Assembly: GCA_017937305.1 (NCBI GenBank)
Contig: JAGBDV010000020.1
Span: 160,576 to 224,575, forward strand
Length of the DNA: 64,000 nt
Origin: Bacilli bacterium
GTDB taxonomy: Bacteria; Bacillota_I; Bacilli_A; ML615J-28; CAG-313
Direction of reading: 5' to 3'
Below, one piece after another: positions 33,520-63,813 of this stretch (the stretch's first letter is position 1; every line of letters begins with the position of its first letter). The notes under the pieces were generated by a model. That model saw only the letters and a list, made by a program, of their open reading frames with translations, ran no database searches and was not told where the DNA came from. The translations under genes were made by a program, and so were the position numbers.

Positions 33520-33882
33520 CGGAAAGATAATCGAGCACATTTTTATGTGTTAGGAAAGTCCATACTAGCACAATCTGCGATGATTGTAGTGTTTGCGCTT
33601 AACGAAAAAATAAGTTAAGGTACTATCCAATGGTTAGTAACGGCGAATGAAACCTAAGGCTTTTTGCTATGGTGTAGTTCTGAAAGTGCCACAGAGACGA
33701 TTTTCTTTTGGAAACAAAAGAGTGGAACGGGTAAACCCCACAAGCTAGCAACCCAAATTTTGGTAGGGGCATGATTTTAGGGAGAATTGAATCCACTAAA
33801 ATTACACTATTTAATAGTGAGATAAATGATTATCACTTCTTAATGAAGGACAGAATATGGCTTACAAAGTATTAATTATCAA
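33520..33882 (+). ncRNA. rnpB: RNase P RNA (bacterial, low-GC Gram-positive type)
   Basis: Conserved blocks are present: AGGAAAGTCCATACTAGCACA, AAAGTGCCACAGAGACGA, GGGTAAACCCCACAAG and GGACAGAATATGGCTTACA. A P1-like pairing joins GATAAT (33526-33531) with ATTATC (33875-33880). The ends are approximate. Confidence 0.88.
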
Positions 33883-42351: not shown

Positions 42352-44181
42352 ATGATTCCTTCAAAAAAAGAATTATTAGAAAGACAAAAAAAGATTAGAA
42401 ATTTTTCTATCATTGCTCATATTGACCATGGTAAAAGTACTTTAGCAGATAGAATATTAGAATCTACTAAAACTTTAGAAACTAGGGAAATGAAAGAACA
42501 AATCTTAGATTCAATGGATTTAGAACGCGAACGTGGGATTACTATTAAACTTAATTCAATTGAACTTGAATATACTGCAGATGATGGAGAAACTTATATT
42601 CTTCATTTAATTGACACTCCAGGACATGTCGATTTTACTTATGAAGTATCTCGTAGCCTTGCAGCATGTGAAGGTGCAGTTTTAGTTGTTGATGCTGCTC
42701 AAGGTATTGAGGCACAAACACTTGCTAATGTGTATTTAGCTCTTGAAAATGATTTAGAGATTCTTCCGATGATTAACAAAATTGATTTACCCTCTGCTGA
42801 TCCAGATAAAGTAAAACAAGAAATTGAAGATGTTATTGGACTTGATGCAAGTGAAGCTGTACTTGGTTCTGCAAAAGAAGGTATTGGTATTCATGAATTA
42901 TTAGAACAAATAATTGAAAAAGTGCCAGCTCCAGTAGGTGATCCAACGGGTGAAGTTCAAGCATTAATTTTTGACTCTTATTATGATCCATATCGTGGAG
43001 TTATTCCACTAATTAGAGTAGTATCTGGTACAATTAAAAAAGGTGATCACATTAAGACTTTTAATAGTGATCAAGTATATGAAGTTATTGAACTAGGTGT
43101 TACTACACCTAAAGAAAAGAAAAAAGATTTTTTATCAGCAGGTGATGTTGGCTGGCTTGCCGGTAGTATAAAAGATATTTTAACCGTTCAAGTTGGGGAT
43201 ACTATGACTACTTTAGAAAATGAAAGTAAAGAGTCTTTACCAGGCTATAGAAAAATGAATTCAATGGTTTTCTGTGGTATTTATCCTTTAGAAACTAATA
43301 AATATGATGAATTAAAAGATGCACTTGGAAAATTAAAATTAAATGATGCAGCACTTGTGTTTGAACCTGAAACTTCACAAGCGCTTGGCTTTGGTTTTAG
43401 AACAGGCTTTTTAGGACTTCTTCATATGGATGTAATTCAAGAACGTATTGAACGTGAATTTAAAATTCCTTTAATCGCAACAGCACCAAGTGTAGAATAC
43501 CATGTTTATTTAACAAATGGTTCAATGATTAAGATTGATAATCCCAATGATTTACCAGAGTTAACGCTTGTTAAAAGAATCGAAGAGCCTTATGTTCATG
43601 CTAATTTAATGATGCCTAAAGAATATATAGGTTCTATTATGGAAATATGTCAAAATAGACGTGGTACTTATGTATCAATGAGTTATATTGATGATAACCG
43701 TGTATCACTTTATTATGATTTACCACTTTCGGAAATTGTTTATGATTTCTTTGATAAGATTAAGTCTACTTCACGTGGTTATGCATCATTTGACTATGAA
43801 CTTGCAGATTATAGAGAAAGTAATCTTGTAAAACTTGATATTTTATTAAATGGTGAAAAAGTCGATGCATTAAGTATTATTGTTCATAAAGATTTTGCAT
43901 ACGGACGTGGTCGTCAACTTGTTAAAAAACTTCGTGGATTAATTCCTCGTCAATTATTCGAAGTTCCAATTCAAGCTGCTGTTAATACAAAAATTATTGC
44001 ACGTGAAACTTTATCTGCATTAAGAAAAGATGTTATCGCAAAATGTTATGGTGGTGACATTTCTAGAAAACGTAAACTTTTAGAAAAACAAAAAGAAGGA
44101 AAGAAGAGAATGAAACAAGTAGGTAGTGTTGAAGTACCTCAAGAAGCATTCCTTGCAATATTAAAATTAGATGATGAATAA
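42352..44181 (+). CDS. lepA: Elongation factor 4
   Basis: [29 protein letters not shown] and the LepA-specific C-terminal domain. Confidence 0.96.
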
Positions 44182-45310
44182 AAAATTAGGCTTATATATT
44201 CACATTCCTTTTTGTAATAATGTATGTCCATATTGTGATTTTAACAAGATGGTCGCAAGTGATGATTTAAAAGAAAAATATATCAAAGCCTTAATTAAAG
44301 AATCAAAGATTAAAAACATTTCTAAATATGATTTATCCACGTTATATATTGGGGGAGGCACTCCATCAAGTCTTAAGATGGATCTTTTAGAAATGCTTTT
44401 TTCTTCTTTAAATGAGGTAATAAACTTAGAAAAATTAGAAGAGTTTACTTTTGAATGTAATCCAGAAGATATCCACAAGGATTTATTAAATTTATTAAAA
44501 AAATATCATGTGAGTAGACTTTCGATTGGAATTCAAACTTTAAACAAAAATTTACAAAAAGAAATAAAAAGAGTTTTTGATGAAGAAAAGTTATCCACAG
44601 TGGTTAAATTATTAAATGAATGTGGTTTTACTAATTATAGTTTTGATTTAATGTATGGGTTTGTTAAGCAAACTACTTTAGATATCAAATTAGATATTGA
44701 TAAATTAGTTAGTTATAATCCTACCCATATTTCAATTTATTCACTTATTGTAGAAGATCATACTATTTTTGGTAAATTAAAACAAGATGGTTTAGTGTTA
44801 GAGGCAAGTGATGATTTACAAGCTAATCAGTATTTATTTATAATTGATTATTTAGAAAAACTAGGATATTATCAATATGAAACAAGTAATTTTGCAAAAC
44901 CAGGTTATAAATCAAAGCATAATTTAATTTATTGGAATCATGAAGATTATTTATGCCTAGGCACTGGGGCTAGTTCATTTATTGATGATGTAAGAAGTGT
45001 AACAACAACTCGTATTCATGAGTATATTGATAGTTTAAAAAATAATAAATTACCTTTTGTTGAATCTGAACTTTTAGATTTTGAAGATTTAACTGATGAA
45101 TTTGTGATGATGGCGTTAAGAAAAAATGAAGGTGTGGATATCGAATTATTTGAAGAATTATTTGGTGTGGATATCTTTGAATATTATCCTAATATAAATT
45201 ATTTATTAGATAATAATATAATTGAACAACGTGGAAAATTCTTAGCAATTAAAAAAGAATTTAGATATGTTGCTAATTCAGTAATTGTAAAATTTATATC
45301 GGATTTTTAG
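44171..45310 (+). CDS. hemW: Radical SAM heme chaperone HemW (HemN-like, oxygen-independent coproporphyrinogen oxidase family)
   Basis: [10 protein letters not shown] radical-SAM cluster motif and conserved lepA-hemW order. Confidence 0.88.
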
Positions 45311-45320
45311 GTGAATATAA

Positions 45321-46217
45321 ATGGAAGATTTAATTTTAGAATATCGTAATTATTTAGTTTCAGAAAAAATGCGCAGTAGTAATACAGTTAATTCATATGT
45401 AAGTGATTTAGAAAACTATTGCTACTTCTTAACTAATAATTTGTTAATAGAAAATGTGAAAGATATAGAAGCAGAACATATTAAAAAATATTTAAGCTAT
45501 ATTAAAGGCTTAGGTTATTCTGCATCATCAATATCAAGAGCTTTAAGTAGCATTAAGAGTTTTCACAAATATTTACTTGTAGAAGAGGTTTGTGTTAATA
45601 ATCCTGCATCGAGTATTGTAAGCCCTAAAAAACCTAAGAAACTTCCTGCAGTTTTAAGTGTTGATGAAGTAATGCTTTTACTTAATAGTTTAAATAATGA
45701 AACACCAATAAGTTCAAGAAACCAAGTAATGGTTGAATTAATTTATGCGTGTGGACTTCGTGTATCTGAACTTGTTGATTTAAAACTTGGAGATCTACGT
45801 ATGACTTCTAAAATGATTTCAACACGTGGTAAAGGTAGTAAAGAGCGACTTATTCCAGTAAATGATTATTGTTTAAAATTATTAAGAGAATATATTATTA
45901 ATGACCGTCCTAAACTTGCAAAAACAGTGGATCCAGGATTTGTGTTTTTAAATGCTCAAGGTGGGCATTATTCTAGACAAAGTTTCTTTTTATTCTTAAA
46001 AGATAAATGTAAAGAGGTTGGGATTACTAAAGAAATTTCCCCGCATACACTTCGTCACTCTTTTGCAACACATCTATTAGAAGCTGGAACTGACCTTCGT
46101 ATTATTCAAGAATTACTTGGTCATGAATCAATTAGTACTACACAAATTTATACACATATAAATAATAAAACAATTAAAAATGTTTATGATAAAGCTCATC
46201 CAAGAGGAGGAAAATAA
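45321..46217 (+). CDS. xerD: Tyrosine recombinase XerD
   Basis: R...HxxR...H...Y catalytic residues are present (ACGLRVSEL, HTLRHSFATHLL, LGHESISTTQIYTH). The xerD(ripX)-deoB(drm) synteny matches B. subtilis. A dif site lies 2.7 kb downstream. Confidence 0.88.
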   Translation: MEDLILEYRNYLVSEKMRSSNTVNSYVSDLENYCYFLTNNLLIENVKDIEAEHIKKYLSYIKGLGYSASSISRALSSIKSFHKYLLVEEVCVNNPASSIVSPKKPKKLPAVLSVDEVMLLLNSLNNETPISSRNQVMVELIYACGLRVSELVDLKLGDLRMTSKMISTRGKGSKERLIPVNDYCLKLLREYIINDRPKLAKTVDPGFVFLNAQGGHYSRQSFFLFLKDKCKEVGITKEISPHTLRHSFATHLLEAGTDLRIIQELLGHESISTTQIYTHINNKTIKNVYDKAHPRGGK

Positions 46218-46218
46218 A

Positions 46219-47400
46219 ATGTTATATAAAAGAATATTTGTTATAGTAACTGATTCAATGGGAATTGGTGAAGCGAAAGACGCATCAAAATATAATGATT
46301 TAGGATCTAATACTTTTGGTCACATTGCAGACCTATCTTTAAATTTCAACGTTCCAACGCTTGAATGGCTAGGAATTGGAAATATTTGTAAAAATACAAA
46401 AATACCCCCTAAAAAAGCCCCAAATGGTGTTGTAGCACGTATGCATGAGTTAAGTGTAGGAAAAGATACATTAACTGGACATTTTGAAATTATGGGTTTA
46501 AATGTACTAACACCTTATCCATCTTTTACTGATACTGGATTTCCAGATGAACTTATCAAGATGTTAGAAGACTTTAGCAGAAGGAAAGTAATTGGTAATA
46601 TTTCTGCAAGTGGTACCGAAATTATTAAAGACTTAGGAGAAAAGCAACTAGAAACTGGTGCTTTAATTGTTTATACATCAGCTGATTCAGTACTTCAAAT
46701 TGCTGCAAATGAAGAAATAATCCCACTAGAAGAACTTTATAAAATTTGTGAATATGCAAGGCGCATTACAATAGAAAATAAAGACTGGCAAGTAGGTAGA
46801 ATTATTGCACGTCCATTTGTAGGTAAAACTAAAGATACATTTAAACGTACAACAAATCGTCATGACTATGCACTTGATCCATTTGATGAAACAGTACTTG
46901 ATGCATTAAAAAATGAAAACTATGATGTAATAGCAGTTGGTAAAATTAATGATATTTTTAACGGAAAAGGTGTCACTAAAGCAATCCGTACTGTATCTAA
47001 TCATGATGGCATGGAAAAAACTATTTCCTTATTAGATGAAGACTTTACAGGACTATGCTTTACAAACCTTGTTGATTTTGATGCACTTTATGGACATCGT
47101 AGAGATTTAGAAGGTTATAAACTAGCTATTGAAGAATTTGATCAAGATTTAAAATCTTTTATAGATAAAATGAATGATGATGATTTAGTAATTGTTGTAG
47201 CAGATCATGGTAATGATCCTGTTCACCATGGAACCGATCATACAAGAGAAATAGTTCCATTTATTGCGTATAGTAAAAAACTAACTGGTAAAGTACTTGC
47301 TGATTTTGATACATTTGCATATGTTGGTGCAACAATCGCTGATAACTTTAATGTTAAATCACCTAAAATTGGTAAAAGTATTTTAAAGGAACTAAAGTAA
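46219..47400 (+). CDS. deoB: Phosphopentomutase
   Basis: VTDSMGIGEA and ADHGNDP metal-binding motifs. The ATG at 46219 follows AGGAGGAAAA, and the ORF-track start at 46180 lies inside xerD. Confidence 0.93.
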   Translation: MLYKRIFVIVTDSMGIGEAKDASKYNDLGSNTFGHIADLSLNFNVPTLEWLGIGNICKNTKIPPKKAPNGVVARMHELSVGKDTLTGHFEIMGLNVLTPYPSFTDTGFPDELIKMLEDFSRRKVIGNISASGTEIIKDLGEKQLETGALIVYTSADSVLQIAANEEIIPLEELYKICEYARRITIENKDWQVGRIIARPFVGKTKDTFKRTTNRHDYALDPFDETVLDALKNENYDVIAVGKINDIFNGKGVTKAIRTVSNHDGMEKTISLLDEDFTGLCFTNLVDFDALYGHRRDLEGYKLAIEEFDQDLKSFIDKMNDDDLVIVVADHGNDPVHHGTDHTREIVPFIAYSKKLTGKVLADFDTFAYVGATIADNFNVKSPKIGKSILKELK

Positions 47401-47401
47401 A

Positions 47402-48301
47402 ATGGAAAGTGTTATAATTAAAAGTTATAAAGAAGGCTATCCTAATGTTTATGGTTTTAAAACATCTTGTGATAACCCTAAATCTGTAATTTTATTTGTC
47501 CATGGTATGGCAGAACATATTGAAAGATATAAAGATATCGCAAACTATCTTTCAACAAAGGGGTTTATTTGCTATGGATTTGATTTAATTGGACATGGTA
47601 AATCAGTTTTTGAAAATGAAAGAGTTGGAATTGTTAAAGCTGATGACTTTTTTGAAGCTGAAATTGAATGTATCAAACATATTTATGACTTTATAAAAAA
47701 AGAACATCAAGATTTAGAAATAAATCTATTTGCTCATTCAATGGGATCAATGATTTCACAATGTTATATTGAGAAGTATCCTATAGACTTTTCTAAAGTA
47801 ATCTTATCTGGAACTGATATTGGATCACTAAAATATAAACTAATGTCAAAAATCGCAAAAGGAATGATAAAAAAACATGGTTTATACTATTATTCTGATT
47901 TAATTCAAAAACTATCTCTTGATGCATTTGACAAACCATTTGATAAAAAACTAGGTTGGTTATCTATAAATGAACAAAATATTATTGATTATCTAAATGA
48001 TCCTTTATGTAATGAAAGATACCCAATTGGATATTTTTATAGTTTAGCTATTAACTTATATGAAGCAGCTAAACCAAAAAATATTAAAAACATTAAAGCA
48101 AAGAAAATCTTACTTTTAACTGGTGAAAAAGATCCAGTTACAAACTTTTCAAAATCAACGAAGAAGCTTAATAAGAAATATATAAATCAAGGTGTTAATA
48201 GTTCAATCTTAATTTTACCTAATCTTCGTCATGAAACCTTCCATGAAGACGATGAAATTAATAAAAGAGTTTACAAAGAGATTGAAGAGTTCTATAATTA
48301 A
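47402..48301 (+). CDS. Alpha/beta hydrolase (lysophospholipase / monoacylglycerol lipase-like)
   Basis: HGMAEH oxyanion region, the nucleophile elbow AHSMGS, and a C-terminal D...H. Confidence 0.75.
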   Translation: MESVIIKSYKEGYPNVYGFKTSCDNPKSVILFVHGMAEHIERYKDIANYLSTKGFICYGFDLIGHGKSVFENERVGIVKADDFFEAEIECIKHIYDFIKKEHQDLEINLFAHSMGSMISQCYIEKYPIDFSKVILSGTDIGSLKYKLMSKIAKGMIKKHGLYYYSDLIQKLSLDAFDKPFDKKLGWLSINEQNIIDYLNDPLCNERYPIGYFYSLAINLYEAAKPKNIKNIKAKKILLLTGEKDPVTNFSKSTKKLNKKYINQGVNSSILILPNLRHETFHEDDEINKRVYKEIEEFYN

Positions 48302-48308
48302 TAATTAA

Positions 48309-48335
48309 CTGTCTAATAAATTTAGACAGTTTTTT
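48309..48335 (+). terminator. Intrinsic terminator ending the last + strand operon
   Basis: CTGTCTAA-TAAAT-TTAGACAG followed by T6. Confidence 0.8.
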
Positions 48336-48340
48336 ACTTT

Positions 48341-48860
48341 AAAGGTTTTCCACATCCTTTTTAATAAACGATGAAAATTAAAAGATGAATATTTATCCAC
48401 TTGATGCTTTGTAGAAAGGTTTAAAAGTTTTCCACACCTATAAATATTTAACTAATTCATTAGTTATCAACTATTCTCTATATGAGATGATGTAACATTA
48501 AAAGATGTATAAACATTTGTTAGATGTTTATAAATGTGTTAAAAAAGTTTTCAACATCCTTTATATAAAAAGATGAGAAATAAAAAGATGAATAAATATT
48601 AATTGAAGTTTTTTAAATTGACTGATCTATAATTTTATAGGTCAGTTTTTTTATTGTAATAAAGCTTTATATGAGAAGTTAAAAATAAAATAATGAATAA
48701 TTATTCATTTCGATTTTTGATGTGAATTGTAGCATTCTGTAAGAGGATGAAATTTTAAAACATGAATAATTAACTTTTCAACATTTGTTGATTATTTTAG
48801 ATTAATTATTCACTGCTTATTAACAATTAAAAAGAATGAATAACCACTTATAAACATAAT
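48341..48860 (+). repeat. Array of degenerate direct repeats on the left flank of dif; units contain GTTTTC(C/A)ACA(T/C)C and AAAAGATGAATAAATA-type motifs
   Basis: Units begin at about 48341, 48421 and 48541, and the first and third are identical at most of about 56 positions. Further decayed copies lie at about 48668, 48737 and 48827. There is no ORF of 60 aa or more in any frame. Confidence 0.6.
48621..48652 (+). terminator. Terminator-like hairpin plus T-run inside the ORF-free region
   Basis: ACTGATCTATAA-TTT-TTATAGGTCAGT (one G-U pair) followed by T7. It suggests a short rightward transcript ends here. Confidence 0.45.
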
Positions 48861-48914
48861 TATTAACATTTAAATAAATATAAAATTATTTAGGTTTTAC
48901 TTATCTTTTTTATT

Positions 48915-48952
<38 letters not shown>

Positions 48953-49223
48953 TATATTTGTAGAGGTATTTGGCTATTTAATGATATAATAATTAAAAAA
49001 TGAATCGTTCTTTCGACTAATTCACCTATTACTGTTGATATTAAACTATGTCATTTTAAAAATGATGACATAGTTTCTTAAGTTCTTGTTTCGACGAATA
49101 AATATTAATTTATCAACATTCTTCTTTAGTAATCAACTACCTTATTAATAGGTTTTCCTCGTTTTATCCACTTATGATAATAAAAAAAGCCCTGTTTCCA
49201 GAGCTTGAAATATATTTATTTGA

Positions 49224-49448
49224 ATAATTAATCATTTATTTTCTTATAATAAGGTTACTAAATATCTTATTATCTATTATTAATTACTTATTCGATCTAT
49301 TTCTTGATTATTATATTCTACTTCCTTACAATTGAATTGCTAACTTTATATGTAATTAAATTATTTAAATGAATTTTATATCCCTTCTCTGAGATGATGA
49401 AATATTATTTTATTGATAATTAATCGTTTATTTTATTAAATAAGGCTT
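49224..49448 (+). repeat. Pair of ~33-bp direct repeats about 190 bp apart on the right flank of dif
   Basis: 49224-49256 ATAATTAATCATTTATTTTCTTATAATAAGGTT is matched by 49416-49448 ATAATTAATCGTTTATTTTATTAAATAAGGCTT. Confidence 0.55.
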
Positions 49449-49606
49449 TTATAAGCTTGTTTTAATGAGTTTATTATTAATATTAATAATTTAATATCTA
49501 ATTATAAGTTTTAAAATAAGTGGTTATTTTGTCTTTATTTAATCAGATGATAATTATTTTTTATAATAAATAATTACTTCTGTTCTTCTTTTACATAAGA
49601 TATAAT

Positions 49607-49641
49607 AAAAAACCTCGAAAACAGCGATTTTTCGAGGTTTT
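49607..49641 (-). terminator. Intrinsic (bidirectional-looking) terminator of the first - strand operon
   Basis: AACCTCGAAAA-CAGCGA-TTTTCGAGGTT flanked by an A-run and a T-run. Confidence 0.8.
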
Positions 49642-49729
49642 AGTTATTATTATTAATTAATCAAAAATGATATTAAAGTTTAAAAATAGGTAGTTTTTAA
49701 AGCTTAATTTACAAAATAAAACTATTTTA

Positions 49730-50560
49730 TTAAAGCTTATTTACTAAATTTAAACCTAGTTTTTCTGCAAGTTCATATGCTTTTAATGTTTCATCATCAT
49801 GAATATGCATTGGATCATGTGCATCATCATTAACCATTACTAAAACTTTAGTTTCAGCACATAATTTAAAGAACTCAATATTTGGATAAGCCCAAGAATG
49901 AATTTCCTTCTTCTTATTTTCACTATTTGGAAGTGTAATATAACGATATGATTTTTCACAGTTTCTTATACCATTTGCGTTAATCTCTAATATAACATTA
50001 TTGTTTATAGCAGCTTCAATGATTCTTTTTGTAACATTTACACATTCATCGTCCCAGAAAGGGTAACCCCAGTTAAAAATATCAGGGTGCGCAAAGATTT
50101 TAAAATATCCAGTATTTAAAGCTTCAACAACAGTATTACAATAAATTTCTAACATCTCACTAGAAAGTTGAGAATAAATGGATAAATATTTACCTTCATA
50201 TTTAAAATAATGCTGACCAAGAATCATATAATCTAATTTTTCGGTAAGTTGTGGATAAAATTCTTTAAATTCATCAAAATATTCAATTTCTACAGCACTA
50301 TGAACATTAATTGTGCCTTGATATTTTTGCTTAGCCTTTTCTAAATCTGGTAAATAGATGTTTATAAAATCATCCATATTCATTCTTTTTGAATAAATTA
50401 GTTTTTCTAACTCTTTTGTAAACGGACAATGATCAGAAATACCAATATCTGTATATCCAAGTTCGATAGCACGGTTTATATAGTCATCTATAGTTCCTAT
50501 AGCGTGTCTACAAAGGTATGTATGAGTATGATAATTAGTCTGTATTTTCATCTTCTGCAA
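49730..50560 (-). CDS. PHP-family histidinol-phosphatase-like hydrolase (HisJ/HisK family)
   Basis: N-terminal NYHTHTYLCRHA and further His/Asp metal ligands (DHCPF, FAHPD, NDDAHD). Confidence 0.8.
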   Translation of the reverse strand: MQKMKIQTNYHTHTYLCRHAIGTIDDYINRAIELGYTDIGISDHCPFTKELEKLIYSKRMNMDDFINIYLPDLEKAKQKYQGTINVHSAVEIEYFDEFKEFYPQLTEKLDYMILGQHYFKYEGKYLSIYSQLSSEMLEIYCNTVVEALNTGYFKIFAHPDIFNWGYPFWDDECVNVTKRIIEAAINNNVILEINANGIRNCEKSYRYITLPNSENKKKEIHSWAYPNIEFFKLCAETKVLVMVNDDAHDPMHIHDDETLKAYELAEKLGLNLVNKL

Positions 50561-51587
50561 CTCCTAATACATATTCTTTTTTGTTTGGATTATATAATTT
50601 TTGCCATTTTGCACTACGACCTGTGCCTAAGGGAATAATATAATTCATATCATGTAATTTTTTTAATGTTCTCATAATAGTTGAAGGGCTAACACTAGGA
50701 TTTAGTCTTGCAACATCTTCTTTTGAGAATAAATCAGGTAGTAAGTGTAATATTGATTCTTCAATTATATCACTTTTATGTGCAGTTTTACTAACCTTTT
50801 TAGTTTCAATTTCTTTTAATTCATTAAAACTATTATTAATTAATGACAATGTATATTTTACAAACTCATAAAAGAATATTGTTCCTTGATCATAATTAAT
50901 ACTACCTTTGCTAATTAAGCTAAAAGCTTGTTCTTTATTTTCAAAAAACATTTTAAAGAAACTAACATAATTAAAACTCACAATTCCACATTTAAGTAGT
51001 AAATAATAATAAGTTAAGATTAGTGCAAGCTCATTATATTCAGAATAAGGTTTAATATTATACATTTCCATTATTAAAATTGACGATAAAATGATTGGTT
51101 CATATAATTTTTGTTCAATCGCTGAATCATAATCGTCTAATATCTTATTAAATTTATAACGAACGCTTTTATTTTTAGCTCCTTGAATTGTAAAATCATG
51201 ACTATTTATCTTTACAATAGGACCATAAATACGTTTTAACATATCTAAAATATCAATACTGTTAATTGGACGCTTAAATTCTATTGCATTAGATCTAATC
51301 GATATTAACATTCTTTTAATGGCTGCAACCATATTTTCTTCTTTTGTTTTAGGAGTATAATCTTTAGTAATTATTAAACGTTGACGTTCAAAACTTACCC
51401 TTAAACCTAAATATTTAACAATTTCAAATGTATCTTCTTCTAATGAGTTATTATAATTAATTAAATAATCATCTTTATAGATACTACTATACATTTCGGA
51501 TTTACCAATTGTTTTATATAATGATAAAAGTTCAAGTAGTAAATCACCAGGAATTTGGTAATTTTTCAAATAATCAAAATTATTCAT
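50535..51587 (-). CDS. Fic-fold protein with degenerate active-site motif and a C-terminal winged-helix domain
   Basis: The helical core aligns with the Fic pattern, but the HPFx(D/E)GN(G/K)R position reads KPYSEYNEL. The C-terminus (VSPSTIMRTLKKLHDMNYIIPLGTGRSAKW) is wHTH-like. It overlaps the downstream PHP gene by 26 nt. Confidence 0.5.
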   Translation of the reverse strand: MNNFDYLKNYQIPGDLLLELLSLYKTIGKSEMYSSIYKDDYLINYNNSLEEDTFEIVKYLGLRVSFERQRLIITKDYTPKTKEENMVAAIKRMLISIRSNAIEFKRPINSIDILDMLKRIYGPIVKINSHDFTIQGAKNKSVRYKFNKILDDYDSAIEQKLYEPIILSSILIMEMYNIKPYSEYNELALILTYYYLLLKCGIVSFNYVSFFKMFFENKEQAFSLISKGSINYDQGTIFFYEFVKYTLSLINNSFNELKEIETKKVSKTAHKSDIIEESILHLLPDLFSKEDVARLNPSVSPSTIMRTLKKLHDMNYIIPLGTGRSAKWQKLYNPNKKEYVLGVAEDENTD

Positions 51588-51588
51588 A

Positions 51589-52512
51589 TTATCTATCTCT
51601 CAAAAATGGTAATTTTTTATATAAATAAGGTACAAGTACTATTGCAAGAACAGCAATCATACTATGAGTAATTAAATTAGAAAAATTTAATAAAAATTGA
51701 TTATTTAACACTACATCCAAATGATTAATTACATGAGCACCTAAGTAAATGATAATCATCAATACTAAACCAAATAAATATCTAATGATATTAACTTTTC
51801 TAGATTTTGCAATTTCAAAATTAACATATTTTTCTTCTAAAAATAACCCTAGTAGACAACCAAATAAAATTCCCATGCCTTTATAGAAGTCTTTTCCCAT
51901 ATTAGGAATAAATAAAAATGGAATTAAACATATTGTAGTAATGATAAAGACATGATATTTTTTATGATAGAACTTATCAATGATTGTACCAAAGATAATT
52001 GTAGATATAATACCTATACTTGTTCCAACAACTACATCGCCTGGAAAATGAACTCCTAAATAAAGTCTTGATGTTGGAACAATAATTAACATAAAGATAC
52101 TACAAATAATTACCCAGTTCTTCTTAAAATATCTAATAATACTACTATATAAAGTACCTGAATTTTGACTATGACCACTAGGAAATGAAGTGCCTGATGC
52201 TCCATCAGATAAAGATGTACCATCTAATTTTCTTAAATATTCACGTCCTTCATATTGAAATGGACGAAGTGACTGAAACATTCCTTTTAATATACCATTT
52301 AAATTGATACCTAAAATAGAAATATATGCAATTTTAATCCCTTTTTCTTTATTTATACACCAATAAACTATTGTCATTAAGATTAAAATTCCAATACTAC
52401 CACCTATTTGTGATATAAAATAAAAGAAATAATCAAAAAACTTCAAATCAATTTTATTAAACCAATCTAAAATATCCCATTCAAAATTAAATCTCATAAT
52501 TTCTAAAAACAT
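51589..52512 (-). CDS. PAP2-family membrane phosphatase
   Basis: The three PAP2 motifs are present: KGMFQSLRP, PSGHS and SRLYLGVHFPGDV. There is additional C-terminal TM extension. Confidence 0.82.
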   Translation of the reverse strand: MFLEIMRFNFEWDILDWFNKIDLKFFDYFFYFISQIGGSIGILILMTIVYWCINKEKGIKIAYISILGINLNGILKGMFQSLRPFQYEGREYLRKLDGTSLSDGASGTSFPSGHSQNSGTLYSSIIRYFKKNWVIICSIFMLIIVPTSRLYLGVHFPGDVVVGTSIGIISTIIFGTIIDKFYHKKYHVFIITTICLIPFLFIPNMGKDFYKGMGILFGCLLGLFLEEKYVNFEIAKSRKVNIIRYLFGLVLMIIIYLGAHVINHLDVVLNNQFLLNFSNLITHSMIAVLAIVLVPYLYKKLPFLRDR

Positions 52513-52515
52513 TTG

Positions 52516-53268
52516 TTACTCCTTATGTTTTGTAATATTTTTTGATTGTTTTGCAAGAGCGTATAAAGTTTTAACATCATGAATACTTAAAACTTCAACT
52601 TCTCCTTCTTTTAGATTTTGAATTGTAAGATGGCCAAATCTAACTCTCGTTAATTTCTTAACTTCATGATCTATTGCTTTAAACATTTCTTTAACTTGAT
52701 GATAGTTGCCTTCTGTAATAATAATTCTAACTAAGCTAGAACCATGTTCACGATCTAATGATTCAATAGTTACAACTGCAGGTAATGTCTTTTTACCATT
52801 AATTATTACACCTTCTGTTAATTTCTTAATATCAGTAAGTGTCATTATACCTTTTACACGTGCTAAATATTCTTTTTCTATTCCACTTTTAGGCCCTACC
52901 AAAGCATTCATAAACTCTCCATCATTAGTAAGAATTAAAACACCTTTTGTATCGTAATCAAGTCTACCAACACTATAAATTCTTTCTTTTTTTAAGTTTT
53001 CAGGTAAGATATCAAGAATTGTTTTTCTTCCTCGATCATCACTTGATGTACAAACTACACCACGTGGTTTATTTATTACATAGTATTTTTTAGCCTCTTT
53101 TTCTATTATTTTACCATTTACTTCAATAACATCATCATATGATACTTTAGTACCAAGAATAGTAATCACTTCACCATTAACCTTAACTTTTCCTTCAAGA
53201 ATTAATTCTTCAGCTTTTCTTCTACTACAAATACCACATTCTGCGATTCTTTTTTGTAATCTTTCCAT
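52516..53268 (-). CDS. rluB: 23S rRNA pseudouridine synthase RluB/RsuA family
   Basis: N-terminal S4 domain (RLQKRIAECGICSRRKAEELI) and the catalytic GRLDYDTKG motif. Confidence 0.88.
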   Translation of the reverse strand: MERLQKRIAECGICSRRKAEELILEGKVKVNGEVITILGTKVSYDDVIEVNGKIIEKEAKKYYVINKPRGVVCTSSDDRGRKTILDILPENLKKERIYSVGRLDYDTKGVLILTNDGEFMNALVGPKSGIEKEYLARVKGIMTLTDIKKLTEGVIINGKKTLPAVVTIESLDREHGSSLVRIIITEGNYHQVKEMFKAIDHEVKKLTRVRFGHLTIQNLKEGEVEVLSIHDVKTLYALAKQSKNITKHKE

Positions 53269-53372
53269 ATTGCTGTCCTTTATTTTATAAATATTCTAGA
53301 TTAATTATACTAAAAATTTAAGTTTTTTTCAAGTAATTAATTAGTAATGATAAATTACTATAAACCAATTAA

Positions 53373-53436
53373 CCCTTCTCTAAGCGTTCGAATGTAAAAA
53401 AGATGAGTAAATATCTACTCATCTTCTTAAAAATGA
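53373..53436. repeat. Intergenic element copy A of a dispersed family (CCCTTCTC-TAAGCGTTCGAATG-AAAAAAGATGAGTAAATA-...CTTCTTAAAAATGA); its core also forms the terminator of the upstream - strand gene
   Basis: It aligns by eye with copies at 56064, 54853, 62457 and 63740. The internal hairpin AAGATGAGTA/TACTCATCTT (53400-53425), with a T-run on the - strand, acts as a terminator. Confidence 0.5.
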
Positions 53437-53471
53437 TAAATTATTCTTGAAGTAGTGCTTCTAAAACATTT

Positions 53472-53951
53472 TTATAAATCTTTTTTCGTAATATTTAATG
53501 CATCTTTATTTGCTTCAAATAATTCCATCAATTCATCACCAAAGACATAGATTTCTTTTCTCCATGGATGTCCTAATAATCCATAGCTAAAGTCTTTAGC
53601 GATAAAAAAATAATAATCTCCATTTGGATAATATGATGGAAAGTATACATTACAATTTCGTGTTTCATCATGCCATTGTTTAATAAAATTGTTATATTCA
53701 TGTGGATTAAAAATAAAACAATCATGATGCCAATCTAGTGCATAAATATCTTCATTAGATATTTTTTTAAATAATTCATTTACTAAATTTTCTTGTTCTT
53801 CTGTCCAAAATGAATTAAATTTAAAACACTTTACTTTAATTTTGAATTTAAATGGAACTGAATCTATATTAATACTAGGATAAAACTTAAAGTCATTGTA
53901 TATTTTATCCCAAATCTCTTTATCTAGATCATCTTCTATTATTTTTACCAT
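53472..53951 (-). CDS. Hypothetical cytoplasmic protein (159 aa)
   Basis: ORF with a GGAGAAAAA RBS and a terminator downstream. No motif was confidently recognised. Confidence 0.55.
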   Translation of the reverse strand: MVKIIEDDLDKEIWDKIYNDFKFYPSINIDSVPFKFKIKVKCFKFNSFWTEEQENLVNELFKKISNEDIYALDWHHDCFIFNPHEYNNFIKQWHDETRNCNVYFPSYYPNGDYYFFIAKDFSYGLLGHPWRKEIYVFGDELMELFEANKDALNITKKDL

Positions 53952-53992
53952 ATTATATTTTTCTCCTTTAAATTAGTTTATAAATGTATTAA

Positions 53993-54757
53993 TTAAATGG
54001 TCCATTTTTTAAAATCATCAACAATATAATCTGCATCAATTGCCATATCACCTTGTGGTGAAATATTAGATTTAACATAATAAGTAGAAAAACCTACAGA
54101 TTTAGCACCAAAAATATCTGATATTGAATCATTTCCAATAAATAAGGTACTTGATGGATTAATGGAATATTTAGTTAATAAGATATCAAAAAAGCGTTTA
54201 TCAGGCTTTTTAGTTTTATAATCTGATGAAATTAAAATACCATCAAAGTATTTAGTAATATCTAAAGCATTCATTTCATACTCTGTAAAAATACGTTGAG
54301 CATTAGATAAAAGATAAATTTCTTTACCTTCTTCTTTTAGTTTTCTTAACATATTAACAGTTCCATCATATAGTTTTAGATACTTAGTTGTTAAGATACG
54401 GAATAGTTGTCCTGTATTTACTGCAAGACTAGTATCTACTTTTATCCCTTTTCTTAAATATAACTCAAGAAACACTTCAGTAAGCTCTATTTCGGGTGAT
54501 GCTTCATGAGAATATTTTGGATCTTGTTCTAATGTAGATTTTAAATTCGCCTCTTTGTTTTTTATAATTTCTTTATAACTTAATTTTAATTCTTCTTTTG
54601 TATAATTTGCTTTATAATATCCATAAAATAAAGACAGCTTTTCCCATACATCAATATTTTCTTCATCAGTATTAATATCTACTAATGTCCCATATAAATC
54701 AAAAACATATGTTTTATAATTTAGTGGTAATAATGCAGTTTCAGATGTTTTAATCAT
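53993..54757 (-). CDS. HAD-superfamily hydrolase (subfamily IA-like)
   Basis: Motif I FDLYGTLVD, motif II LSN, and motifs III/IV K...GNDSISD. Confidence 0.78.
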   Translation of the reverse strand: MIKTSETALLPLNYKTYVFDLYGTLVDINTDEENIDVWEKLSLFYGYYKANYTKEELKLSYKEIIKNKEANLKSTLEQDPKYSHEASPEIELTEVFLELYLRKGIKVDTSLAVNTGQLFRILTTKYLKLYDGTVNMLRKLKEEGKEIYLLSNAQRIFTEYEMNALDITKYFDGILISSDYKTKKPDKRFFDILLTKYSINPSSTLFIGNDSISDIFGAKSVGFSTYYVKSNISPQGDMAIDADYIVDDFKKWTI

Positions 54758-54852
54758 TTGATAACTCCTTTTTGATTTTTATAACAATATTATAACACTT
54801 TTTTTAAATTTAACAAATCTTTTTAAATAGTAATTTATATTTTGCACATTTC

Positions 54853-54917
54853 TAAGCGGTTGAAACAAAAAAAAGCGACTAATTATTTATTTAAAGTTTT
54901 TAAAAAGAGGGTAAAAA
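54853..54917. repeat. Intergenic element copy C (partial) of the dispersed family
   Basis: It has the left arm TAAGCGGTTGAAAC and the distal TTTTTAAAAAGAGGGTAAAAA tail, but no right arm. Confidence 0.35.
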
Positions 54918-54993
54918 TGATAGAGTATAAACTTTATCAATATGTACTTCATAAGCTTATCTTTATATTTTTATTATTTTCTTTTTTTTCATA

Positions 54994-55488
54994 TCATAAA
55001 ATAAAAAAAATAAAAAACAAACTTACTAATAAAAATGTAATTATATCTGTTAAAACACCAACTTTTAATGCATATTTATAATTTTTTATTTTAACACATG
55101 AAAAATACAATGTAACAATATAAAAAGTTGTATCACTACATCCTTGAATGATTGAAGATAAAATACTTATATTACTATCAATACCAAAAGTTTTAAAAAC
55201 TTTTAACATCATTACAAGTGCACTAGATGATGATATCGGCTTTAAAAAGGCTTGAATTATGATTTCTATAGGAATACTTATAAATTTTACATATTCATTA
55301 AAAAGTTCAATAATTCCACTATTTGTAAATACTTCTACTGCAAAAACTAAAGCAAGTAAATTAGGAAAAATATCAAGTAATATTTTAAAATTACTACTTA
55401 CTCCTTCTTTAAAAGATTCATAACAATTCACCTTTTTAATCATTCCATAAAGGATAATAAAGGAAATATAAATAACGATTACGATCAT
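54994..55488 (-). CDS. spmB: Spore maturation protein B (nucleoside-recognition/Gate domain membrane protein)
   Basis: Hydrophobic, 164 aa, and overlaps spmA by 4 nt. It is the third gene of the classical dacB-spmA-spmB arrangement. Confidence 0.75.
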   Translation of the reverse strand: MIVIVIYISFIILYGMIKKVNCYESFKEGVSSNFKILLDIFPNLLALVFAVEVFTNSGIIELFNEYVKFISIPIEIIIQAFLKPISSSSALVMMLKVFKTFGIDSNISILSSIIQGCSDTTFYIVTLYFSCVKIKNYKYALKVGVLTDIITFLLVSLFFIFFIL

Positions 55489-56060
55489 ACTTTACTTCTT
55501 CTATAAAAGATACGGTCTAATGCTATCGCAAGAAAAGTAGAAATTGATGTTGCAATAATCATCATTAAAATTACATTCATATTAGTGCTTCCACCATTTA
55601 ATTTTCTTAAACTAATAATTGTAGTTGGAATTAACGTTAAACTACTACAGTTTATCGCAATAAATGTAAGCATACTTCTATTTGGAATCCCATTTTTTGT
55701 ATCTTTTGCCATTTCTTTAAAAGCTGCAATGCCCATTGGTGTAGCAGCAGCACCAAGTCCTAACATATTTGCAACCATATTTGAACAAATTAATTCATAA
55801 GCCTTACTTTCAAAGTCAAGTTCTGGGTAAATCTTTCTTAAAGGCTTTTTTAAAAAATTACTAAATCTTTTTACCATCCCGGAATCAATTGCAATTTGAA
55901 AAAGACCACCCCAAAATAAAATTAAGATGCCTGTTTGAAAAAATATTTCAAATGCCTTTGTGCTTGAGTCAATCATAATATTTCCAAGATTATTTATCTT
56001 TCCTGTTATTAAACTAATAAATATTCCTATAATTAATAACCAACACCAAATCTTATTCAT
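55485..56060 (-). CDS. spmA: Spore maturation protein A
   Basis: Gate-domain membrane protein of 191 aa, directly downstream of dacB. The RBS is AAAGGAGGG. Confidence 0.75.
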   Translation of the reverse strand: MNKIWCWLLIIGIFISLITGKINNLGNIMIDSSTKAFEIFFQTGILILFWGGLFQIAIDSGMVKRFSNFLKKPLRKIYPELDFESKAYELICSNMVANMLGLGAAATPMGIAAFKEMAKDTKNGIPNRSMLTFIAINCSSLTLIPTTIISLRKLNGGSTNMNVILMMIIATSISTFLAIALDRIFYRRSKV

Positions 56061-56063
56061 AAA

Positions 56064-56125
56064 CCCTCCTTTAATCGTTTGAAATAAAAAAAGATGAATA
56101 AATACCTTCTCAACTTCTTAAAAAC
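56064..56125. repeat. Intergenic element copy B; it fills the whole dacB-spmA spacer
   Basis: CCCTCCTT-TAATCGTTTGAAAT-AAAAAAAGATGAATAAATA-CCTTCTCAACTTCTTAAAAACG. The left end doubles as the spmA RBS and the right end overlaps the dacB stop. Confidence 0.45.
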
Positions 56126-56972
56126 GTCTTCTAATTTGACTAAAACCATAACTACTTAGTCTTTTATGTAAATCCCAATCACTATATGCATCAAGACTAA
56201 CTACAACTAGTTGATTAAATTTATCTTCAAATCCAGTAATTAAAGTTCTTCCTGCTTTTTTTGTATAACCTGTTTTACCACCTAGACAGTTAGGCTCACT
56301 ATGTACTAATCGATGTTTATTCTTGAAGTTTAATACTTTATATTCTAAATTTACACTTTTATAAGTTTTAGTTTTGAATACTTCTTTAAAAAAATCAATC
56401 TTATAACATGCAGAATATAGAATTGCTAAATCATAAGCAGTTGTATAATTATTTGTAATTCCGTCTAATCCATGTGGATTTTCAAAATTAGAATCTTTCA
56501 TTCCAATTGTTTTAGAAATCTCATTCATTAAAATGATAAAATCATTTAATTCACCACTATATTTATACGCAAGAGCAAGTGCTGCATCATTACCACTACA
56601 AAGGAGTAAGCCATATATTAAATCTTTAACACTAATAACATCTCCTACTTCTAAATAAATCTTTGATCCTTCTACATTAATCATGTCATGAGTAATTACA
56701 ACAAAATCATTTAAATCATAATACTTATAAGCTACATATGCTGTTAAAACTTTTGTTAAGGATGCAGGTAACATTTTTCTATATGCATCGTTTTCATATA
56801 ATACTTCATTATTATATAAATCAAGTACAATTGATGATTTTGATGTATCATTTAGAGTAACAGTATTCACCATTTGATCAGAATTAGTTTTAGGAACTAA
56901 TAAGCCAATCATTACTATTATTATAATAATTAAAAACATACCAATAAATTTAAATTTCACAAACATCACCAT
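56118..56972 (-). CDS. dacB: D-alanyl-D-alanine carboxypeptidase (S11, DacB-like sporulation PBP)
   Basis: SxxK (PASLTK), SxN (CSGND) and KTG (GKTGYT) motifs plus an N-terminal TM anchor. The spmAB genes lie downstream. Confidence 0.85.
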   Translation of the reverse strand: MVMFVKFKFIGMFLIIIIIVMIGLLVPKTNSDQMVNTVTLNDTSKSSIVLDLYNNEVLYENDAYRKMLPASLTKVLTAYVAYKYYDLNDFVVITHDMINVEGSKIYLEVGDVISVKDLIYGLLLCSGNDAALALAYKYSGELNDFIILMNEISKTIGMKDSNFENPHGLDGITNNYTTAYDLAILYSACYKIDFFKEVFKTKTYKSVNLEYKVLNFKNKHRLVHSEPNCLGGKTGYTKKAGRTLITGFEDKFNQLVVVSLDAYSDWDLHKRLSSYGFSQIRRRF

Positions 56973-57030
56973 TTAATAATATGAATAAATATTTTAAAAA
57001 ATACCTCTATTAAATATTAAGTTTAAAGAA

Positions 57031-57059
57031 AAAAAGATGAGTTTTTACTCATCTTTTTT
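57031..57059 (-). terminator. Intrinsic terminator of miaA (bidirectional shape)
   Basis: AAAAAGATGAGT-TTTT-ACTCATCTTTTTT. Confidence 0.8.
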
Positions 57060-57061
57060 GA

Positions 57062-57961
57062 TTATTCTTTCAAAAATTTATCTATTAAACTATAAACTTC
57101 ATCTACAGTATTATTGAAATTATTAACATCTATTAAAACTTCAGTAACATATTCTTTATTTCTAAACCATGTAAGTTGACGTTTAGCATAATTTCTTGAA
57201 TATTGTTTGATTTTATCAATTGCTTCTTCTTTAGTAGAATTTCCATCAAAATAGTCAAATAGTTCTTTATATCCTATTGCAGCTTTTGCAGTTAGTCCTA
57301 GTTTATTAGGATAAAAACTTTTTACTTCTTCAAGTAGTCCTTCTTCTAACATTTGATCTACTCGTTTATTAATGCGGTTATATAAAACTTCGCGATCATC
57401 ATTTAAAACGATAACAAGTGCATCATATAACATTTCTTTCTTTTTAGTTCCCTTTTGTTCATTATTTAAAGCTATTTCTAAAGCTCTTAAAACTCTTTTT
57501 CTGTTATTTGGGTGAATTTCATTATATGATACATTATCTAGATCTTTTAATAATAAATGTAATTCTTCATTTGATAAATTTTTATATTTTTCTTCAAATG
57601 AATGATCTCTAGTTTTACCATCAAATGTGTAATTGCATATAACACTTTCTAAATAAAGGCCACTTCCTCCAACAATTAAAGGAATGATATTTTTAGATTT
57701 AAATTCAGATATTTTATCTCTTACAATTCTTTGATAATCAGCTACACTAAAGTTTTCTAATGGATCAAGATAATCTATTAAATGATGTTTAATCTTTGAT
57801 AATTCATCTTTTGATGGCTTTGCAGTACCGATATCCATACCTTTATATATTTGATATGCATCACCATTAATAATTTCAGTTTTTAATCGTTCAGCAATTA
57901 ATAATGAACATTTTGTTTTTCCAACCGCTGTAGGACCAGTGATTATTACAACTTTATCCAT
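57062..57961 (-). CDS. miaA: tRNA dimethylallyltransferase
   Basis: P-loop ITGPTAVGKT and GGSGLY motifs, with the conserved mutS-mutL-miaA order. Confidence 0.93.
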   Translation of the reverse strand: MDKVVIITGPTAVGKTKCSLLIAERLKTEIINGDAYQIYKGMDIGTAKPSKDELSKIKHHLIDYLDPLENFSVADYQRIVRDKISEFKSKNIIPLIVGGSGLYLESVICNYTFDGKTRDHSFEEKYKNLSNEELHLLLKDLDNVSYNEIHPNNRKRVLRALEIALNNEQKGTKKKEMLYDALVIVLNDDREVLYNRINKRVDQMLEEGLLEEVKSFYPNKLGLTAKAAIGYKELFDYFDGNSTKEEAIDKIKQYSRNYAKRQLTWFRNKEYVTEVLIDVNNFNNTVDEVYSLIDKFLKE

Positions 57962-62384: not shown

Positions 62385-62456
62385 AATATTTCCTCATTTT
62401 TATAGTTTTGTAATTATTATATCATAATTTGTGATTTTAATCAAATAATTGTCAAG

Positions 62457-62513
62457 TTTTTAGCGTTTGAGATGATTAATTACCCATATTTTTAAACTCA
62501 ACCGCTTAAAAAA
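62457..62513. repeat. Intergenic palindromic element copy D
   Basis: The degenerate left arm TTTTAGCGTTTGAG, a 25-nt spacer, and the right arm CTCAACCGCTTAAAAAA. The right part (62489-62512) is identical to 63774-63797. Confidence 0.6.
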
Positions 62514-62526
62514 GGGTATAAAAAAA

Positions 62527-62546
62527 GGCCCAAAAATTGGACCTAT
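62527..62546 (-). terminator. Terminator of the Sel1-like gene
   Basis: On the - strand, AGGTCCAATTTTTGGGCCT is followed by T7 (one mismatch in the stem). Confidence 0.55.
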
Positions 62547-62549
62547 AAA

Positions 62550-63659: not shown

Positions 63660-63689
63660 TTATTACTCCTAAATTATATTCATATTTTT

Positions 63690-63718: not shown

Positions 63719-63739
63719 TTAATTAATATAATATAGAAC

Positions 63740-63797: not shown

Positions 63798-63813
63798 TGA
63801 GTTATAAAAAAGA

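Follow-up and report, generated by a model that had tools for sequence, protein, structure and literature searches.

The subject of this report is the long intergenic region around the dif site of an uncultured bacterium with 26% GC, contained in a stretch of 64,000 nucleotides of contig JAGBDV010000020.1 (here called the window). The window is a replication terminus. The GC skew, positive as far as 48 kb, changes sign at 48 to 50 kb and is negative beyond 50 kb, and the dif locus represents the maximum of the cumulative skew with convergent genes, not an origin. The genes converge on a gap of 1428 nt (positions 48302 to 49729) flanked on the right by a gene for a PHP-domain protein and on the left by an alpha/beta-hydrolase gene (47402 to 48301), the latter being the immediate neighbor of an array of degenerate ~55-nt direct repeats interspersed with 9-mers that resemble the DnaA box. 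Exact copies of the flanking genes were confined to gut-metagenome assemblies, and the more distant homologues of the PHP-domain protein carry the names Anaeroplasma and Acholeplasmataceae.

The dif site, ACTTCCTATAATATATATTATGTTAACC on the minus strand (48915 to 48942), is a perfect Bacillota/Firmicute-type 28-mer, i.e., two 11-bp arms around a 6-bp center, and is single copy, with no other site within 8 mismatches in the 64 kb. The identical 28-mer was found in 31 metagenome contigs from organisms of 23 to 36% GC, and in nearly all of these 31 loci dif has the same convergent-gene, skew-switch position; at least 20 related loci agree. From established knowledge of E. coli and B. subtilis dif we take the TTATGTTAACC arm, by homology, to be the XerD arm. 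As this arm forms the left end of dif on the plus strand, the array lies on the XerD side. A XerD equivalog (TIGR02225, 339.1 bits versus a cutoff of 329.6) is encoded 2.7 kb away at 45321 to 46217; XerC was not encountered within the window, no search aimed at it having been made.

The classical DnaA-box consensus is TT(A/T)TNCACA. The 1.43-kb intergenic region contains five 9-mers within one mismatch of TTATCCACA, each of them on the plus strand, which corresponds to 3.5/kb versus 0.35 to 0.6/kb in the rest of the window. With the relaxed pattern TT[AT]TN[CA]AC[ACT], there are 12 matches on the plus strand compared to 1.3 +/- 1.1 in Markov-1 simulations (0/2000 reached 12), an approximately 9-fold enrichment that is almost entirely confined to that strand. 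The DnaA-box-like 9-mers listed in the initial annotation of this DNA were all recovered, and their excess over chance was upheld, with the qualification that the boxes are not independent events because several lie inside a duplicated unit. Boxes in the array are consistently on the strand reading toward dif. To the right of dif, TTATCCAC is invariant in the window and in two comparison loci (L094 and L090; comparison loci are designated L plus a number), and plus-strand boxes resembling the right-hand pair of the window occur at +185 to +197 in L130, L105, and L124.

The main finding concerns two boxes at the inner end of the array, TTATAAACA (48848) and TTATTAACA (48860), whose starts lie 67 and 55 nt ahead of dif and which match the position of a pair that recurs across lineages. 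In most of the 31 identical-dif loci, oriented as the window, a box pair is found just left of dif and always on the plus strand. A same-strand, closely spaced pair located 45 to 77 nt from the XerD arm is present in at least 12 of 20 lineages with otherwise unalignable flanks, and the box starts cluster at -47, -57, -67, and -77 despite spacers that cannot be aligned between groups. Among 15 lineage representatives, 18 plus-strand boxes (one mismatch at most) start between -80 and -44 versus 0.13 expected, with only one box on the other strand and almost none elsewhere within 300 nt; in the histogram of box starts, the peaks are confined to the bins -60 and -50. When every plus-strand 9-mer from -100 to -30 was scanned without bias, TTATCCACA emerged as the most widely shared word (12/20 lineages), and the same scan applied to control zones returned only A/T low-complexity words.

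Perfect copies of TTATCCACA occupy the pair zone in L105/L130, L109, and L117. The position matrix of 30 boxes reads T T A T [C/T/A] [C/A] A C A, the variation being mainly at position 5 (the N of the classical consensus) and position 6 (C or A). The C-to-A change at position 6, seen in the most AT-rich lineages, departs from TT(A/T)TNCACA, and position 3, the other variable position of the consensus, is A in 25/30 boxes. In many lineages (L111, L117, L118, L084, and the window) the boxes are separated by only 0 to 3 bp, giving tandem pairs such as TTATAAACA-taa-TTATTAACA in the window, TTTTCCACA-t-TTATCCACA in L117, and TTTTCCACATTGTCCACA in L111. Syntenic relatives with no more than 62% and 46% PHP identity keep the arrangement, as do three unrelated Bacilli metagenome-assembled genomes with a slightly different dif (L047, L083, and L084). 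A search of genome contigs with the hydrolase gave one close relative (L010); the other 79 loci were distant, paralog-level matches, three of them with dif.

Between the pair and dif lies a second conserved element, the 22-mer GGTTTTACTTATCTTTTTTATT, in which the TTTACTT plus T-tract is invariant in nine lineages (PHP proteins 46 to 100% identical) and which may act as a bend or docking surface. Constraint is also apparent between the window and L116, which align over 48365 to 50560 with about 87% identity. Over 48500 to 48950 identity is 88 to 96%, compared to 66 to 70% in two neighboring neutral-looking spacer stretches and 79 to 87% at third codon positions of the flanking genes. Within the array, the boxes were spared, with 2/81 differences inside versus 53/467 outside boxes (Fisher p=0.009). 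It is the inner end, not the outer array, that appears to be under long-term selection, the outer units being evolutionarily labile.

We propose that the inner boxes serve XerCD/dif as an accessory or regulatory site of the DnaA type and that the padding around it consists of repeat debris and back-up terminators. The box motif points to DnaA, and same-strand close boxes at a fixed distance from one arm, with an intervening T-tract, are what would be expected of an accessory site beside a recombinase core. Since what was observed are features of the sequence (the repeats, the enrichment, the strand bias, the cross-lineage position, and the constraint), from which we infer both the protein that binds and an effect on Xer recombination, the proposal is a tentative one, to which we assign somewhat less than an even chance. 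In such a scheme, DnaA, or a protein of the same DNA specificity, would bind the direct box pair cooperatively and would reach over the bendable T-tract spacer to contact or position XerD (and FtsK) at dif. The site would in this way tie the replication initiator to the resolution of chromosome dimers or to the state of the terminus. Weaker boxes would come from the outer copies, which, together with the orphan terminators at 48620 (plus strand) and 49206 (minus strand), would keep convergent transcription out of dif. The initial annotation had considered a protein-binding array beside dif among several possibilities. This idea survives as regards a DnaA-box-type motif, mainly owing to the boxes at 48848 and 48860, which it did not list, whereas the outer units that it emphasized are labile copies of a dispersed repeat. 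Its statement that no element of such an arrangement had been described agrees with the literature searched, the coverage of which is incomplete; in that literature no report of DnaA boxes phased to dif was found, which is absence of evidence only.

A number of observations weigh against the proposed accessory site. The two proximal boxes of the window are themselves degenerate (C6 to A, two mismatches), they are spaced 12 nt apart, and they start at -67/-55, not at -57/-47. The L104 group and L102/L123 have the same dif without any boxes (in L102/L123 dif is squeezed between genes), and the box of the Acholeplasmataceae locus L134 is weak. The strain variant L002 mutates its boxes (4/90) as often as the remainder of the array (13/522), including an A-to-G change at the invariant A7 of the box in unit U3. 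The head of unit U1 is not conserved in L116 and its box is missing there, and L010 (hydrolase 93% identical) is unrelated in sequence beyond the shared terminator. The complementary strand of the U1 and U3 heads reads as a Shine-Dalgarno sequence followed by ATG TGG/TTG AAA ACx TTT (in U1, ATG TGG AAA ACC TTT, with an open reading frame [ORF] at 48305 to 48400), according to which some of the outer "DnaA boxes" could be relics of gene starts on the other strand and not binding sites. In addition, known Xer accessory regions are on the XerC side, not the XerD side. As to the sample, the comparison loci are metagenome assemblies, which tend to break inside the dif-flanking region. Most of them were recruited via the identical dif, the lineages share ancestry, and the -80 to -44 zone was chosen after inspection, all of which makes the P values optimistic; the de novo 9-mer scan is independent of the zone.

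The system that the window locus would work most like, without our filing it as a member, is that of the plasmid Xer accessory sequences, i.e., cer of ColE1 (ArgR/PepA) and psi of pSC101 (ArcA/PepA), which are likewise sites for host proteins at a defined distance beside a XerC/XerD core. The accessory host proteins of cer and psi have other main jobs. These sequences are plasmid-borne, extend about 180 bp on the XerC side, and are FtsK-independent, whereas the window locus involves a chromosomal dif with DnaA-box-type motifs 45 to 77 nt away on the XerD side. The pair itself resembles the basal unwinding system (BUS) of oriC, which likewise has two same-orientation boxes 0 to 3 bp apart, the upstream one often the better match, followed by AT-rich DNA (PMC8287927). 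Unlike in BUS, the pair is not at oriC or beside dnaA, and the role of AT-rich target would fall to the dif central region, 50 to 60 nt away and hence beyond the 16-nt spacer limit of BUS (PMC8287927). The DnaA-trio rule of that system, (.A.){3,}, asks for at least three trios (NAN) within 16 nt of the box (PMC8287927); DNA of 21% GC yields such matches trivially, and the spacers show no conserved trio register.

Features of the intergenic region around dif, in order of position in the window
Feature	Position	Strand	Details
Intrinsic terminator of alpha/beta-hydrolase gene	48307..48336	+	Left limit of array; terminator scan
Unit U1	48343..48401	+	First box TTTTCCACA 48346-48354, last box TTATCCACT 48393-48401
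Head-only partial copy TTTAAAAGTTTTCCACA	48420..48436	+	Box TTTTCCACA 48428-48436
Unit U2, true third full copy	48462..48513	+	Box TTATCAACT 48464-48472
Weak promoter-like stretch TTGTTA-17-TGTTAAAAA	48517..48545	+	Kept in L116 with spacer 1 nt longer
Unit U3	48545..48599	+	Box TTTTCAACA 48548-48556
Orphan intrinsic terminator	48620..48655	+	12-bp stem (hairpin 48620-48647) plus T-run; second plus-strand stop before dif
Relic unit U4	48667..48719	+	nhmmer E=2e-4
Relic unit U5	48734..48788	+	Box TTTTCAACA 48775-48783; nhmmer E=2e-8; aligns with L094, L116
Inner same-strand box cluster	48806..48868	+	TTATTCACT 48806, TTATTAACA 48817, TTATAAACA 48848, TTATTAACA 48860
Conserved T-tract flank GGTTTTACTTATCTTTTTTATT, 22-mer	48893..48914	+	Abuts XerD arm of dif
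dif core site ACTTCCTATAA-TATATA-TTATGTTAACC	48915..48942	-	XerD-type arm toward array
Inverted repeat AAACTATGTCATTTT/ATGATGACATAGTTT	49043..49076		101-134 nt beyond XerC arm
Right-hand same-strand boxes	49110..49172	+	TTATCAACA 49110, TTATCCACT 49164
Orphan terminator fused to R1	49187..49206	-	Second stop for PHP-side transcription
Repeat copy R1	49191..49244	Same as left units	Right of dif; profile search
Repeat copy R2	49383..49435	+	R1 duplicate, decayed hairpin; nhmmer E=4e-6; 80% identity to 49206-49246

The outer part of the array is made up of the repeat units. U1 (48343 to 48396) and U3 (48545 to 48599) are identical at 45/52 positions, and their local alignment score of 34.5 exceeds that of every one of 2000 dinucleotide shuffles (11.2 +/- 1.9; z about 12), bearing out the repeats as nonrandom. 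Between its two boxes U1 contains a 14-nt tandem, GATGAAAATTAAAA/GATGAATATTTATC. These two units had been placed at 48341 to 48396 and 48541 to 48598 in the initial annotation; they are real and their strings and coordinates essentially right, apart from an offset of about 2 nt in the second. A third copy had been assigned to near 48421, where only a 17-nt head was found (16/17 identical to 48338 to 48354). The full third copy is U2, which scores 20 against U1 and 26.5 against U3 in local alignments and is conserved in L116. The relics suspected near 48668 and 48737 were recovered by the profile search as U4 and U5. U4 contains a perfect 14-bp palindrome, TGAATAATTATTCA, at 48694 to 48707, which fits the ARG-box core pattern with no mismatches.

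A profile of the unit was built from the clearer copies and used in nhmmer searches of the window and of relatives. Elsewhere in the window it matched 53374 to 53428, 54849 to 54901, and 56065 to 56118 on the plus strand and 62468 to 62515 on the minus strand (E 1e-3 to 1e-8), with none in the 48 kb left of the array; the copies so far lie within about 15 kb of dif. Copies in the same E range were also found in the relatives L090, L091, L094, L116, L105, L106, and L124, in intergenic positions and on both strands relative to genes; the four additional window copies and those of L090, L091, L094, and L116 are between minus-strand genes. In the better-preserved copies a CCCTTCTC..(G)ATGAAAT head is followed by an A-run and then by a 10-bp-stem hairpin, AAGATGAGTA..TACTCATCTT, that is a terminator on the opposite strand; a hairpin or palindrome and a CCCTTCTC..GATGAAAT head together make up the unit. 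Read on the gene-sense strand, the copies outside the array show the 10-bp-stem terminator and then ATTTCAAACG and CTTAGAGAAGGG.

As copies occur at other intergenic sites in either orientation, the unit qualifies as a small dispersed repeat and the array as a local cluster of its decaying copies. By its distribution the ~55-nt unit behaves like a REP/MITE-type element and is not dif-specific. The outer array (48341 to 48800) is a set of local duplications of this hairpin-bearing dispersed repeat and is lineage-specific. The unit shares with REP/BIME, BOX, RUP, and Correia-type repeats a palindromic core, the occupation of several intergenic sites in either orientation, and local clustering as in BIMEs, and differs from them in being an unrelated sequence family whose copies lie within about 15 kb of dif.

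The main rival of the accessory-site proposal follows from these repeats, namely, that the locus is neutral debris, a gene-free terminus with decaying REP/MITE-like copies in which the outer boxes are carried along with the duplicated unit and have no function and only dif, perhaps with its immediate flank, matters. The profile matches at the four other intergenic sites of the window and at the L090, L091, L094, and L116 junctions, in either orientation, favor it, as does the frequency of box mutations in L002 given above. The outer array also varies in length and content, the distance from hydrolase to dif rising from about 320 nt (L114) and about 370 nt (L128) to 614 nt (the window) and 835 nt (L130), and the DNA at its left border differs in L010 and L116. 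Against neutrality stand the conservation of 48500 to 48950 in L116 and the sparing of its boxes, together with the distant relative L114, which retains the motif order box-GATGA..-AAAAGATGAATAA-box. Debris leaves unexplained, moreover, the one-strand box pair at a fixed offset across unalignable flanks. We regard it as a rather doubtful explanation, and it may well hold for 48341 to 48800 even with a functional inner pair.

Gene-content change has a hot spot at the outer border of the array. L010 has unique noncoding DNA downstream of the hydrolase terminator (2951 to 3267), and L116 (oriented 3 to 842) keeps the array with an unrelated 280-aa ORF in the place of the hydrolase; variable DNA starts about 570 nt from dif. 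Nine contigs of this species and its relatives (L005, L007, L008, L009, L010, L090, L091, L094, and L095) end inside the dif-flanking intergenic region, and contig breaks near dif are consistent with dispersed repeats or strain heterogeneity.

Another explanation is that the boxes form a terminus cluster that regulates DnaA independently of Xer, by titration or in a datA/DARS-like manner, its late doubling reporting the completion of the round. There is precedent in the non-origin DnaA-box clusters (the six of B. subtilis; datA and DARS in E. coli), which are likewise intergenic 9-mers near TTATCCACA outside oriC. To our knowledge, no DnaA-box cluster has been reported in a fixed relation to another site. 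The number of boxes in the 1.4 kb (5 within one mismatch, 12 relaxed) would suit such a cluster, the family-level conservation of boxes near the terminus fits it equally, and non-origin clusters of B. subtilis affect initiation (PMC3245932). The initiation-regulating clusters of B. subtilis are, however, described as oriC-proximal (PMC3245932), whereas the window cluster is terminal and one-stranded, with conserved boxes distance-locked to dif. Titration needs no fixed distance or orientation to dif, and the two boxes present in most lineages are too few for much of it, which together make a DnaA-regulating cluster improbable.

The gap is also rich in transcription signals, with 6 terminator-like sites versus 0.1 expected. 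The hairpin of the hydrolase terminator is conserved in L010 and L002 despite divergent downstream DNA. The terminator-like hairpin that had been noticed at 48621 to 48652 is a good intrinsic terminator (48620 to 48647 plus T-run), and between the window and L116 its stem shows two changes in which pairing is kept via G-U wobble in the plus-strand RNA only, suggesting that the hairpin is used as RNA. The hairpin at 49187 to 49206 shows compensatory changes in L094, L103, and L109. These two orphan terminators point at dif from opposite sides. The promoter-like stretch at 48517 to 48545 could start a transcript of roughly 100 nt ending at the 48620 terminator; it was not listed by the consensus promoter scan of the region, in which promoter-like sites were not enriched (16 versus 15.2 expected). 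The boxes or the 22-mer flank were rejected as promoters, no acceptable -35/-10 geometry being found on either strand.

Alternatively, the conserved blocks could belong to small RNA gene(s), as promoters and terminators of short transcripts (e.g., about 48555 to 48655, plus strand), or serve pure transcription insulation, as tandem back-up terminators shielding dif from convergent read-through. The excess of terminators with two orphans facing dif, the pairing-preserving U-G/C-G swaps of the 48620 stem in plus-strand RNA, and the retention in L116 of the weak extended -10 promoter-like stretch all speak for this. Searched with Rfam at the gathering threshold and at E up to 10, the region 48250 to 49780 gave nothing relevant, the best match being an irrelevant miRNA model below cutoff. 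Small ORFs in the region do not exceed 31 aa and none is conserved, the 23-aa ORF at 48505 to 48576 being frameshifted in L116 and L002. Together with the lack of promoter enrichment, these results argue against it, and neither small RNAs nor insulation explains the box pair and its phasing to dif, so that we consider this account to have little likelihood, comparable to that of a DnaA-regulating cluster. Over the window as a whole, Rfam at the gathering threshold recognized only an RNase P RNA class B and a T-box leader (33524 to 33865 and 16314 to 16518), the RNase P class being compatible with a Bacillota/Mollicutes-type organism.

Beyond the XerC arm, an inverted repeat is present at the same offset (+101 to +134) in at least seven lineages, and at +100 to +135 in the loci L116, L094, L128, L109, L111, L117, L118, and L115, with arms of 12 to 14 bp and the consensus TAAACATAnTCA-N12-TGAnTATGTTTA. 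Its symmetry is clear, 80% of cells pairing compared to 31 to 40% with the partner slid. An RNA structure was rejected, as RNAalifold predicted nothing and covariation was not above shuffles; this makes a symmetric DNA site more likely and suggests a dimeric protein site rather than RNA. In L111 and L117 the left arm is GGTTAACATAT, which is XerD-arm-like. Karaboja et al. reportedly described in 2021 sites at the B. subtilis terminus to which XerD binds and which serve to unload SMC (XDS). The XDS are likewise additional XerD-connected protein-binding sites around dif in Bacillota. The resemblance is limited to the arms of this inverted repeat; an XDS-like array of XerD half-sites was discarded since XerD-arm-like half-sites are not enriched in the array. 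Nearer to dif, about 60 nt to its right, the block AATGAATCGTTCTTTCGAC (48999 to 49017) is conserved in L116 and L094, and the L124, L105, and L109 lineages have a different conserved block, ATGTTTAATTGTCGAAT, about 60 nt right of dif.

The remaining explanations fare worse. The palindromes of the TGAATAATTATTCA type could be ARG boxes that aid Xer synapsis in a cer/psi-like accessory region using ArgR, a known Xer accessory factor at cer. Matches to TGAATWWWWATTCA within two mismatches do occur 8 times in the intergenic region versus 1.65 +/- 1.25 expected (5.6/kb versus 0.56/kb elsewhere), with a perfect core at 48694 and a one-mismatch copy at 49221 on the XerC side. However, the palindromes are part of the duplicated unit and so not independent, in copies away from dif they give way to the 10-bp-stem hairpin with its different spacing (AAGATGAGTA..TACTCATCTT), and their distance to dif (220 to 530 nt) is neither fixed nor conserved across lineages, making ArgR a very improbable partner.

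Likewise, there is only the slightest chance that the array is the scar of integrative mobile elements exploiting Xer (IMEX), a suggestion of the initial annotation, or a set of decayed tandem dif copies. Gene content left of the array does differ between close relatives, and U1 and U3 begin with heads similar to the 21-mer next to dif (17/21). Yet the 64 kb lack, within 8 mismatches, the second dif-like site that such a history would leave, XerD-arm half-sites are not enriched, and the variable DNA begins about 570 nt away, not at dif; the 28-mer was unmatched in viral contigs, and the region was unmatched in plasmid and phage collections. The units as decayed dif copies were discarded, since the alignments of units with the dif region are marginal, their scores being reached by 22/500 and 26/500 shuffles.

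A replication fork trap (also raised at the outset), a guide for the translocase like the FtsK-orienting polar sequences (KOPS), or a MatP/matS-like terminus organizer is at least as improbable, despite the terminus location and the oriented repeated motifs and palindromes within about 15 kb of dif, given that none of the 12 relaxed plus-strand boxes and none of the unit copies changes orientation across dif, where Ter sites and KOPS must invert, and that the box has no replichore-wide skew (11 plus versus 18 minus on the left arm). Strong skew is instead seen for GAAGAAG, which among heptamers has the most unequal strand distribution, with 51 occurrences on the leading versus 1 on the lagging strand (window 1 to 48300 and 49730 to 64000). 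This is the word reported for Lactococcus KOPS; coding bias may explain much of the skew because genes are co-oriented with replication.

The neighborhood of the locus is itself stable. The gene order XerD, phosphopentomutase, hydrolase, dif region, PHP is kept down to 46% PHP identity (window 42352 to 50560; L128 and L130), and throughout these three the noncoding gap between hydrolase and PHP is long, about 950 to 1430 nt. Upstream of XerD the window has LepA and HemN-like genes. Overlapping the PHP gene (49730 to 50560), a minus-strand gene at 50535 to 51587 encodes a conserved 350-aa protein without a Pfam or NCBIfam family, the C-terminal half of which resembles a Fido-domain protein (PDB 8uqu, E=3.7e-9). 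This ORF and PHP stay paired even in Acholeplasmataceae, in which the pair comes after topoisomerase IV-like genes (L134). As a nearby-encoded binding protein for the locus the 350-aa product was set aside, as with no family and only a Fido-like C-terminal half it is no obvious DNA binder.

A wider version of the accessory-site proposal is that in a broad clade of AT-rich Bacilli (Acholeplasma/Anaeroplasma-like, mostly uncultured, from the gut) DnaA would be a dedicated partner of XerCD/dif, with terminus and reinitiation coupled. We consider this unlikely. The phased tandem pair on the XerD side would load DnaA beside dif, and termination or dimer resolution and the licensing of the next initiation would be physically joined at one locus of roughly 250 bp, comprising the box pair, the T-tract, dif, and the symmetric site about 100 nt beyond dif.

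Two old questions remain open, the link between the end of one replication round and the control of the next and whether a chromosomal dif needs more than XerCD and FtsK. If the boxes are nonfunctional, the locus documents how a gene-free terminus gathers and erodes a small dispersed repeat and serves as a warning that DnaA-box-like words arise from duplicated debris. If the proposal is true, a DnaA-type site phased to dif would provide a concrete, mutable DNA element for probing the link between termination and initiation, and chromosomal dif would be able to carry accessory sequences, so far a feature of plasmid sites.

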